From: Escherichia coli
Lineage (GTDB): Bacteria; Pseudomonadota; Gammaproteobacteria; Enterobacterales; Enterobacteriaceae
Length of the DNA stretch: 64,000 bases
Strand: one strand, 5' to 3'
Assembly (NCBI RefSeq): GCF_003334405.1
Contig: NZ_QOWM01000007.1
The notes under the pieces are model-generated. The model made no database searches. It was not told where the DNA came from and saw only the letters and a program-made list of their open reading frames with translations. The first letter of the stretch is position 1. Every line of letters starts with the position of its first letter. Positions 24,924-56,621 of this stretch are shown here, piece by piece. A program made the translations under genes and the position numbers.

Positions 24924-25246
24924 AATTTTTCCAACGCTTCCGAGAGAGCACGGTTATCGAGGTCGGCAACCCCTTTTTTCGCCACCACCACGAAATCCAT
25001 AGCCGGGAGTTCATGTTGGCGCAGACGGAAGCTTTCACGCGTCAGACGTTTAATCCGATTGCGTTCATGGGCGCGTCGAACGTTTTTCTTGGCGACTGTA
25101 AGACCGATACGGGGATGCCCCAGCGAATTCAGGCGGCCGAGAATGGTAATTTGCGGCGTGCCAGCCCGTTGTGGCTGCTGGAAGACGAATGTGAATTGAC
25201 TGGGAGTTAACAAGCGTAACTCCCTGGGAAATGCGAGCTTAACCAC
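24887..25246 (-). CDS. rnpA: RNase P protein component RnpA
   Basis: 119 aa basic protein; start codon reads GTG on minus strand. Confidence 0.93.
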
Positions 25247-25262
25247 TCAGGGGTTAGCTTTA

Positions 25263-25415
<153 letters not shown>

Positions 25416-25660
25416 CTAAACTTGAATAAATTCAATGGCTTTATTGGATATCCGCCGAAAAATGAAACGATGGACACCGAAGCCATGGGTGATTAAAGAG
25501 GCCGGATTGTAATAATTGTACACTCCGGAGTCAATTCTCTTTCCTTATTTACCGCGCTTTTCCGCACCTTTTCGCAGGGAAAATGTACGACCTCACACCA
25601 GTGGAAACCAGCATGGCGCGCCGGGTGGAGGATTATACGGGCTGATGGGTAAAGCGCAAG

Positions 25661-25886
25661 GATCGTCCTGGATCTTTATTAGATCGATTAAGCCAATTTT
25701 TGTCTATGGTCATTAAATTTTCCAATATGCGGCGTAAATCGTGCCCGCCTCGCGGCAGGATCGTTTACACTTAGCGAGTTCTGGAAAGTCCTGTGGATAA
25801 ATCGGGAAAATCTGTGAGAAACAGAAGATCTCTTGCGCAGTTTAGGCTATGATCCGCGGTCCCGATCGTTTTGCAGGATCTTGATC
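25661..25886. promoter_or_regulatory. dnaA promoter region with GATC cluster
   Basis: Nine GATC sites in about 226 bp (starts 25661, 25671, 25682, 25759, 25827, 25851, 25864, 25877, 25883), roughly tenfold over expectation. Confidence 0.7.
25792..25800 (-). promoter_or_regulatory. DnaA box in dnaA promoter
   Basis: tgtggataa = reverse complement of TTATCCACA. Confidence 0.8.
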
Positions 25887-26009
25887 GGGCATATAACCGC
25901 AGACAGCGGTTCGTGCGTCACCCTCAAGCAGGGTCTTTTCGACGTACGTCAACAATCATGAATGTTTCAGCCTTAGTCATTATCGACTTTTGTTCGAGTG
26001 GAGTCCGCC

Positions 26010-27413
26010 GTGTCACTTTCGCTTTGGCAGCAGTGTCTTGCCCGATTGCAGGATGAGTTACCAGCCACAGAATTCAGTATGTGGATACGCCCATTGCAGG
26101 CGGAACTGAGCGATAACACGCTGGCCCTGTACGCGCCAAACCGTTTTGTCCTCGATTGGGTACGGGACAAGTACCTTAATAATATCAATGGACTGCTAAC
26201 CAGTTTCTGCGGAGCGGATGCCCCACAGCTGCGTTTTGAAGTCGGCACCAAACCGGTGACGCAAACGCCACAAGCGGCAGTGACGAGCAACGTCGCGGCC
26301 CCTGCACAGGTGGCGCAAACGCAGCCGCAACGTGCTGCGCCTTCTACGCGCTCAGGTTGGGATAACGTCCCGGCCCCGGCAGAACCAACCTATCGTTCTA
26401 ACGTAAACGTCAAACACACGTTTGATAACTTCGTTGAAGGTAAATCTAACCAACTGGCGCGCGCGGCGGCTCGCCAGGTGGCGGATAACCCTGGCGGTGC
26501 CTATAACCCGTTGTTCCTTTATGGCGGCACGGGTCTGGGTAAAACTCACCTGCTGCATGCGGTGGGTAACGGCATTATGGCGCGCAAGCCGAATGCCAAA
26601 GTGGTTTATATGCACTCCGAGCGCTTTGTTCAGGACATGGTTAAAGCCCTGCAAAACAACGCGATCGAAGAGTTTAAACGCTACTACCGTTCCGTAGATG
26701 CACTGCTGATCGACGATATTCAGTTTTTTGCTAATAAAGAACGATCTCAGGAAGAGTTTTTCCACACCTTCAACGCCCTGCTGGAAGGTAATCAACAGAT
26801 CATTCTCACCTCGGATCGCTATCCGAAAGAGATCAACGGCGTTGAGGATCGTTTGAAATCCCGCTTCGGTTGGGGACTGACTGTGGCGATCGAACCGCCA
26901 GAGCTGGAAACCCGTGTGGCGATCCTGATGAAAAAGGCCGACGAAAACGACATTCGTTTGCCGGGCGAAGTGGCGTTCTTTATCGCCAAGCGTCTACGAT
27001 CTAACGTACGTGAGCTGGAAGGGGCGCTGAACCGCGTCATTGCCAATGCCAACTTTACCGGACGGGCGATCACCATCGACTTCGTGCGTGAGGCGCTGCG
27101 CGACTTGCTGGCATTGCAGGAAAAACTGGTCACCATCGACAATATTCAGAAGACGGTGGCGGAGTACTACAAGATCAAAGTCGCGGATCTCCTTTCCAAG
27201 CGTCGATCCCGCTCGGTGGCGCGTCCGCGCCAGATGGCGATGGCGCTGGCGAAAGAGCTGACTAACCACAGTCTGCCGGAGATTGGCGATGCGTTTGGTG
27301 GCCGTGACCACACGACGGTGCTTCATGCCTGCCGTAAGATCGAGCAGTTGCGTGAAGAGAGCCACGATATCAAAGAAGATTTTTCAAATTTAATCAGAAC
27401 ATTGTCATCGTAA
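26010..27413 (+). CDS. dnaA: Chromosomal replication initiator DnaA
   Basis: GTG at 26010 ([14 protein letters not shown]...) gives 467 aa; Walker [11 protein letters not shown]; track ORF from 25998 is a 5' extension. Confidence 0.96.
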
Positions 27414-32055: not shown

Positions 32056-32154
32056 GCCTGATGCGCTACGCTTATCAGGCCTACGAAAATCTTGCAATGT
32101 ATTGAATTTTCATGATTTTGTAGGCCGGATAAGGCGTTCACGCCGCATCCGGCA
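32056..32154. repeat. BIME: two REP palindromes in opposite orientation after gyrB
   Basis: gcctgatgcgctacgcttatcaggcctac (32056..32083) and taggccggataaggcgttcacgccgcatccggca (32121..32154). Confidence 0.7.
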
Positions 32155-56420: not shown

Positions 56421-56440
56421 TACTGTATAAATAAACAGTA
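56421..56440. promoter_or_regulatory. LexA box (SOS box)
   Basis: tactgtataaataaacagta, perfect CTGT-N8-ACAG palindrome between divergent tisAB and istR. Confidence 0.85.
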
Positions 56441-56546
56441 ATATTTGGACAAAACGCAAACTGTGATCGATACTCAACTATGCACTAAATACGTCAAAAT
56501 TCGTGCCGAAATTGCGCGTTCTGCGCGGAACACGTATACTTTCAGT

Positions 56547-56621
56547 GTTGACATAATACAGTGTGCTTTGCGGTTACCAGCCGCAGGCGACTGACGAAAC
56601 CTCGCTCCGGCGGGGTTTTTT
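56547..56621 (+). ncRNA. istR: IstR-1 antitoxin sRNA (IstR-2 would be a 5'-extended form starting near 56480)
   Basis: TATACT -10 at 56535..56540 with TTGCGC -35 at 17-bp spacing; 75-nt unit ending in hairpin cctcgc-uccg-gcgggg + U6; 5' end repeats 20/21 nt of 56289..56309. Confidence 0.75.

Follow-up and report, generated by a model that had tools for sequence, protein, structure and literature searches.

Escherichia coli possesses both Dam and SeqA. Its dnaA promoter is a classic negative-feedback element that limits replication to once per cell cycle, in that transcription of the initiator gene pauses after initiation. A review describes "9 GATC sites within 225 bp" in this region and a DnaA box between the two dnaA promoters, p1 and p2 (PMC5835720). 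DnaA represses both promoters in a DnaA-ATP–dependent manner, and the box is essential for repression (PMC5835720); repression by excess DnaA and derepression on DnaA inactivation are credited in that review to Atlung 1984/85, Braun 1985, and Kucherer 1986. The DNA protected by DnaA includes box 1, box 2, and the intervening stretch; in the footprinting of Speck et al. 1999 as summarized there, both of these boxes are bound irrespective of the nucleotide state of DnaA, with boxes a, b, and c requiring DnaA-ATP (PMC5835720). The same review places one GATC in the −10 region and one in the −35 region of p2 and cites Braun and Wright 1986 for a 2-fold increase in p2 activity upon methylation, in vivo as well as in vitro.

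The dnaA promoter is sequestered for ~1/5 of the doubling time, a period that is shortened in seqA mutants (PMC5835720), and prolonged seqA-dependent hemimethylation at this promoter is attributed to Campbell and Kleckner 1990 and Lu et al. 1994 in two later papers (PMC5835720, PMC13337833). Transcription of dnaA is reduced in dam mutants (PMC13337833). According to a 2024 single-cell study (PMC466948), SeqA inhibits expression via five P2 GATCs (in the −35 region, in the −10 region, and three just downstream of the start), and mutation of the three downstream GATCs deprived the reporter of its fork-passage signal; the study also cites SeqA binding at GATCs within the dnaA gene. The study further cites Wilkinson 2006 and Kedar 2000 to the effect that initiation synchrony is not abolished when the three GATCs downstream of the start are taken away, and that the −10 and −35 GATCs add little to SeqA repression. 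In a 2025 preprint, dam deletion left promoter protein occupancy unchanged, with a dnaA RNA-seq log2 fold change of just −0.10. The mild phenotypes of subset removal and the small RNA change upon dam deletion are caveats on how strongly the single GATC sites contribute, and neither speaks against the identification of the region. Here we describe how a GATC-rich region, picked out by a sequence-only reading of 64 kb of E. coli DNA, compares with this system.

Identity and neighborhood of the locus

The analyzed stretch (the window) is 64 kb long. The minus-strand ORFs yidC, yidD, rnpA, and rpmH and the plus-strand ORFs dnaA, dnaN, and recF flank the rpmH–dnaA spacer of 607 bp, in and around which the following features were located.

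25263..25403, minus strand: rpmH (ribosomal protein L34) CDS, from the ORF and the RefSeq annotation; divergent left neighbor of the spacer
25506..25534, minus strand: rpmH promoter-like site, TTGACT and TACAAT separated by a 17-nt spacer; the sole sigma-70 consensus match in the rpmH–dnaA spacer
25633..25713, minus strand: ysdD, a small CDS of 26 aa (YsdD, MTIDKNWLNRSNKDPGRSLRFTHQPV), from the RefSeq annotation; overlaps GATC sites 1–3
26010..27413, plus strand: dnaA CDS with a GTG start, from the ORF and the RefSeq annotation

The locus was identified by DNA identity. The 607-bp spacer matched many E. coli chromosomes at 100% identity, among them that of the K-12 derivative Origami2-DE3, and all but one of 5426 complete E. 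coli genomes (5425) carried it, chromosomal in every case. Since the spacer is fully identical and nearly universal in E. coli, the region at 25661–25886 almost certainly lies within the classical dnaA p1/p2 promoter region. The dnaA reading frame extends upstream to an in-frame GTG at 25998, and the RefSeq start is the GTG at 26010; a GGAG at 26001–26004, 5 nt ahead of the latter, fits 26010 as the dnaA start.

Conservation was assessed in an alignment of the spacers of E. coli, Citrobacter, two Enterobacter species, and Acerihabitans (mean column identity 74% overall). Both hexamers of the rpmH-direction promoter were invariant in all five, and the site is probably the rpmH promoter, judging from its orientation and position. 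The block around it (25495–25548) was the best conserved of the spacer, with a column identity of 96–99% that exceeded that of the dnaA promoters. An Rfam search of 25200–26100 on both strands (E ≤ 1) returned no RNA family in the spacer, and a repeat search of the spacer returned only short two-copy matches centered on GATC contexts, with no true repeat family or hairpin. Elsewhere in the window, Rfam matches were obtained for a ROSE_2 RNA thermometer (42251–42323, plus strand; 100 bits) and the ES036/CssrF sRNA (32077–32119, minus strand; 44.8 bits).

Clustering of GATC sites

GATC occurs at 25661, 25671, 25682, 25759, 25827, 25851, 25864, 25877, and 25883, that is, nine times within the 226 bp up to 25886. 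The count and coordinates given in the sequence-only reading were thus exact, and its estimate of about one site expected by chance agrees with the values of 0.87 per 226 bp from base composition and 1.01 as the mean across the window. The sites comprise the following groups, site 6 being listed below with p2.

25661..25685: GATC sites 1–3, the upstream trio, spaced 10 and 11 bp; sites 1 and 2 invariant in 5/5 aligned spacers, site 3 kept in 4/5
25759..25762: GATC site 4, next to the probable p1 −10 hexamer on its upstream side; kept in 4/5
25827..25830: GATC site 5, in the p2 −35 region; invariant in 5/5; a GATC in the p2 −35 region is also described in PMC5835720 and PMC466948
25864..25886: GATC sites 7–9, lying close together a short way downstream of the p2 start; kept in 3/5 (site 7), 4/5 (site 8), and 2/5 (site 9)

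The reading had implied that GATC density here is an outlier relative to the rest of the window, and sliding-span counts bore this out: nine was the maximum over all 226-bp spans in the 64 kb and was reached solely by the span beginning at 25661. The runner-up span, with eight GATCs, lay within the dnaA CDS, and no other region had six or more. When the 286 GATCs of the window were placed at random, a span with at least nine sites arose in 6 of 2000 trials (0.3%). Over its full length the window has a mild excess of GATC, its 286 sites comparing with 240 ± 13 in dinucleotide-preserving shuffles, none of which (0/100) reached 286.

Successive sites in the cluster are spaced 10, 11, 77, 68, 24, 13, 13, and 6 bp apart. 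SeqA binds paired hemimethylated GATCs up to ~31 bp apart (Brendler et al. 2000, as cited in PMC5835720), and we adopted this spacing from established knowledge as a criterion. It divides the cluster into two runs, of three and five sites. Across the window, runs of at least three GATCs spaced ≤31 bp occurred four times (25661–25685, 25827–25886, 26798–26850, and 27173–27208), always in the dnaA promoter or gene. The promoter cluster therefore resembles a SeqA target in two respects, a GATC density far above background and the presence of several pairs within ~31 bp. The trio lies ~100 bp upstream of p1, inside ysdD on the opposite strand, and its spacings of 10 and 11 bp place sites 1–3 on one face of the helix.

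DnaA boxes and the question of an origin

Three DnaA-box-like 9-mers follow one another in the middle of the GATC cluster.

25792..25800, minus strand: DnaA box 1, TTATCCACA, a perfect consensus box (the plus strand reads tgtggataa); invariant in 5/5 aligned spacers; named box 1 in PMC5835720
25802..25810, minus strand: degenerate DnaA-box-like 9-mer TTTTCCCGA, with 2 mismatches to TTWTNCACA; between box 1 and box 2
25813..25821, minus strand: probable DnaA box 2, TTTCTCACA, with 1 mismatch to TTWTNCACA

The box at 25792..25800, already noted in the sequence-only reading as lying amid the GATCs upstream of the dnaA GTG, was recovered as the sole perfect match to TTATNCACA in the 64 kb; it is situated 210 bp upstream of the GTG at 26010. 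The reading had also held that no cluster of DnaA boxes or AT-rich 13-mers accompanies it. This is correct as regards consensus boxes and an array of 13-mers; it overlooked the degenerate boxes at 25802–25810 and 25813–25821, which adjoin the perfect box. The box-like 9-mers that follow box 1 share its orientation and advance in steps of 10–11 bp between box 1 and the p2 −35 region. TTTCTCACA is identical in the four Enterobacteriaceae compared (E. coli included) and differs by one base in Acerihabitans, and from its position the 9-mer at 25813–25821 is most likely the published box 2. A consensus box in the promoter, with adjoining weaker box-like sites of predicted low affinity, is the arrangement of a DnaA-autoregulated promoter.

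Boxes with one mismatch are uninformative by themselves, since they occur in the window at chance frequency (46 observed, 47.5 expected). Four box-like sites in 45 bp are uncommon in the window, yet they are not its maximum. Degenerate DnaA-box-like 9-mers are packed most densely at a different spot, owing merely to its AT-rich sequence; there, a perfect palindromic LexA-box-like sequence, TACTGTATAAATAAACAGTA (56422–56441), adjoins a full-length match to istR (RF01400, 150 bits; 56492–56621, plus strand). The segment 56422–56621 probably represents tisB/istR, an SOS-induced toxin-antitoxin locus.

Since oriC adjoins dnaA in many bacteria, the GATC cluster and DnaA box might mark a second origin of replication or a still-active remnant of an ancestral one. 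The rpmH–dnaA spacers of Pseudomonas and Stutzerimonas contain 2–5 consensus DnaA boxes (4–5 in Pseudomonas proper) and almost no GATC, in keeping with the location of oriC, which in these genera is known to adjoin dnaA. The oriC of E. coli likewise combines a GATC cluster with DnaA boxes (PMC5835720). The E. coli spacer, however, has just one consensus box; the boxes next to it are degenerate, arranged in a single array that runs in one direction. A search for the AT-rich 13-mer of the unwinding element (GATCTNTTNTTTT) yielded a single match with 2 mismatches at 25818, one among many chance-level matches in the window, with no repeated array, and no 40-bp stretch exceeded 70% A+T. The spacer thus lacks both a cluster of consensus boxes and a 13-mer AT-rich unwinding element, and E. 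coli oriC is mapped elsewhere, between gidA and mioC (PMC5835720). Together, these observations make an active origin here extraordinarily improbable. Present-day origin function is excluded; descent of the region from an ancestral origin is a weaker proposition that may still hold. The region is best read as the dnaA promoter and not an origin, as the sequence-only reading had proposed and as is published for the same sequence (PMC5835720).

Promoter elements p1 and p2

The elements of the two dnaA promoters were assigned as follows.

25766..25771, plus strand: probable dnaA p1 −10 hexamer, TACACT, placed by its distance of ~80 bp upstream of p2, as published (PMC5835720); invariant in 5/5 aligned spacers
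25848–25853, plus strand: dnaA p2 −10 hexamer, TATGAT, overlapping GATC site 6 (25851–25854); hexamer and site 6 both invariant in 5/5
25854–25859, plus strand: CCGCGG directly after the p2 −10 hexamer, matching the CCGCGG motif that PMC5835720 puts just upstream of +1

Transcription from p2 would accordingly start near 25860. Where exactly the hexamers and starts of p1 and p2 fall in window coordinates is our inference from the published description and from conservation. A sigma-70 consensus scan of the spacer detected the rpmH-direction promoter only and neither p1 nor p2, whose −35 hexamers are too weak for the thresholds used.

Conservation of the cluster and its distribution among Gammaproteobacteria

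GATC sites 1, 2, 5, and 6, box 1, the p2 −10 hexamer, and the putative p1 −10 hexamer were invariant across the five aligned spacers. Sites 3, 4, and 8 were kept in four of the five, site 7 in three, and site 9 in two; six of the nine sites were common to all four Enterobacteriaceae compared.

A DnaA protein scan with one genome per species gave 80 gammaproteobacterial loci, in which GATCs were counted in the 400 bp upstream of dnaA; the 63 loci with assigned taxonomy (18 + 45) were used to compare orders. The Enterobacterales, Vibrionales, Alteromonadales, and Orbales, which we take from established knowledge to be the Dam/SeqA clade, had a median of 7 GATCs per 400 bp (n = 18, range 1–12), compared with a median of 1 in the other gammaproteobacterial orders (n = 45, range 0–6; Mann-Whitney p = 8e-9). 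GATC clustering upstream of dnaA therefore follows the orders grouped in this presumed clade. Low counts within the four orders came mostly from reduced symbionts, such as Ca. Pantoea edessiphila (1) and Ca. Photodesmus (3), and the high exception outside them was Thiobaca, with 6. The symbiont loci with 1–3 GATCs hint at a possible decay of the cluster alongside loss of seqA.

Five Alteromonadales loci have a GATC trio with spacings of 9–13 bp ~330–380 bp ahead of the dnaA start, resembling the E. coli trio at 25661–25685. Their trio adjoins a DnaA-box-like sequence, and its surroundings do not align with those in E. coli.

These comparisons bear on whether the GATCs might have no role at all, the cluster being a by-product of chance, local composition, or the coding constraint of ysdD. 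The mild GATC richness of the window would agree with such an origin of the cluster, as would the position of sites 1–3 inside ysdD, where they fall in conserved codons (R-S, D-P, R-S). Against this stand the rarity of spans with at least nine sites among random placements (0.3%), the location of six of the nine sites outside ysdD, and the way in which clustering tracks specific orders across the 63 loci. Citrobacter and Enterobacter sp. Bisph1 have the whole ysdD ORF, E. cloacae has a version shortened to 9 aa, and Acerihabitans has none; because the ORF is truncated or absent in relatives, the peptide does not explain the conservation of the DNA here. Sites 1 and 2 persist in both E. cloacae and Acerihabitans, and ysdD coding constraint was therefore rejected as the cause of sites 1–3. 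A literature search on "YsdD" returned mostly unrelated papers. Overall, we consider it exceedingly unlikely that the cluster is a by-product, and we treat it as a real feature of the dnaA promoter.

A second GATC cluster within dnaA

A further cluster was observed in the dnaA CDS at 26663..27208, with 14 sites in 546 bp and two runs spaced ≤31 bp (26798–26850 and 27173–27208). Shuffling of synonymous codons within dnaA gave an expectation of 8.9 ± 2.0 GATCs, compared with 15 observed (P = 0.0045); the same procedure revealed no GATC excess in dnaN, recF, yidC, or rnpA. Just upstream of this intragenic cluster, and also inside dnaA, the minus strand at 26520–26600 gave a full-length match to the Rfam family AsdA (RF02674, an RNA antisense to dnaA mRNA), scoring 101.9 bits against a gathering threshold of 52.

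Discussion

The identity of the region and the mechanism that it serves are hardly in doubt. In that mechanism, two controls of DnaA synthesis, sequestration and autoregulation, act on dnaA p1/p2. The replication fork passes dnaA about a minute after initiation at oriC, and the clustered GATCs then turn hemimethylated. SeqA, binding hemimethylated GATC pairs no more than ~31 bp apart, covers p2, which has GATCs in its −35, −10, and early transcribed regions. During part of the cell cycle, this coverage keeps out RNA polymerase and prevents remethylation by Dam, so that dnaA transcription pauses right after each initiation. Once fully methylated, p2 is about twice as active. Between the two promoters, DnaA occupies box 1 and box 2, from which DnaA-ATP spreads over the weaker neighbors and occludes p1 and p2. 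The timing of hemimethylation, the dependence on SeqA, and the repression by DnaA-ATP are drawn from published experiments on the same sequence. What the present analysis establishes directly is the anatomy of the sequence, its outlier status, its E. coli identity, its conservation, and its restricted phylogenetic distribution.

Both regulatory proposals of the sequence-only reading, Dam methylation and sequestration through the GATC cluster and autoregulation by DnaA through the box, are consistent with earlier work on the E. coli sequence (PMC5835720, PMC466948, PMC13337833) and with our comparative data.

A different emphasis would have the GATCs mainly tune promoter strength, methylation altering the binding of RNA polymerase or DnaA at p2, with SeqA sequestration secondary. 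The roughly 2-fold effect of methylation on p2 and the two sites in its −10 and −35 regions, as reported from Braun and Wright 1986 in PMC5835720, speak for this, together with the lowered dnaA transcription in dam mutants (PMC13337833) and the removal of several sites with synchrony intact, as cited in PMC466948. Tuning, however, covers sites 5 and 6 at most and leaves the upstream trio, the three downstream sites, and the intragenic runs unexplained, all of which have spacings suited to SeqA. It is also at odds with the seqA-dependent prolonged hemimethylation summarized in PMC5835720 and with the loss of the fork-passage signal from reporters when sites 7–9 were mutated (PMC466948). We therefore regard tuning as the main role of the GATCs as very unlikely. 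The two effects are not exclusive, and tuning is already a component of the accepted model.

It is conceivable, though we put it forward tentatively and as the less probable case, that the sequestration signal is larger and more modular than the p2 GATCs that are usually studied, with the upstream trio and the intragenic runs belonging to one selected domain that nucleates SeqA filaments. This reading draws on the phased trio, which is invariant or nearly so in the Enterobacterales and recurs in the Alteromonadales, and on the intragenic runs, which exceed the expectation from synonymous shuffling. If such an extended domain exists, its redundancy could explain the mild phenotype observed when the GATCs near p2 alone are removed.

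The GATC cluster of the dnaA promoter is thus real but ordinary, having already been described in detail in the literature. Its recovery shows that real regulatory DNA can be read from sequence alone and adds nothing new in itself. The mildly useful additions are all comparative, namely, the restriction of GATC clustering to certain orders, the positional conservation of the sites, and a cluster in the coding region above synonymous expectation.

Comparison with known systems

In Pseudomonas, oriC occupies the same position, between the divergent rpmH and dnaA genes. The Pseudomonas spacer contains 4–5 consensus boxes and 0–3 GATCs per 400 bp, whereas that of E. coli contains one box and nine GATCs. 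The design found in E. coli is repeated in Vibrio, where the dnaA loci have one DnaA box followed by four tight GATCs just downstream. More broadly, the regions upstream of dnaA in Vibrio, Shewanella, and Pseudoalteromonas hold one box in the E. coli orientation and 6–12 GATCs, although they can be aligned with E. coli at the motifs only and their distances to the dnaA start differ.

The oriC of E. coli resembles the dnaA promoter in its GATC density of ~10x background, its SeqA-dependent prolonged hemimethylation, and the interleaving of GATCs with DnaA boxes (PMC5835720). It differs in having several consensus boxes and a 13-mer AT-rich unwinding element, whereas the dnaA promoter has one box and no such element. 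The reported sequestration also differs, lasting ~1/5 of the doubling time at the dnaA promoter and 1/3 at oriC (PMC5835720), and, unlike oriC, the dnaA promoter region regulates transcription, not unwinding.

The locus is that of the E. coli K-12 dnaA promoter (dnaA1p/dnaA2p; Hansen et al. 1982; Campbell and Kleckner 1990; Speck et al. 1999). The region analyzed here shares with the published description of that promoter the nine GATCs in ~225 bp, the DnaA box separating p1 from p2, and the placement of GATCs in both the −10 and the −35 region of p2 (PMC5835720), and we found no difference of substance between the two.
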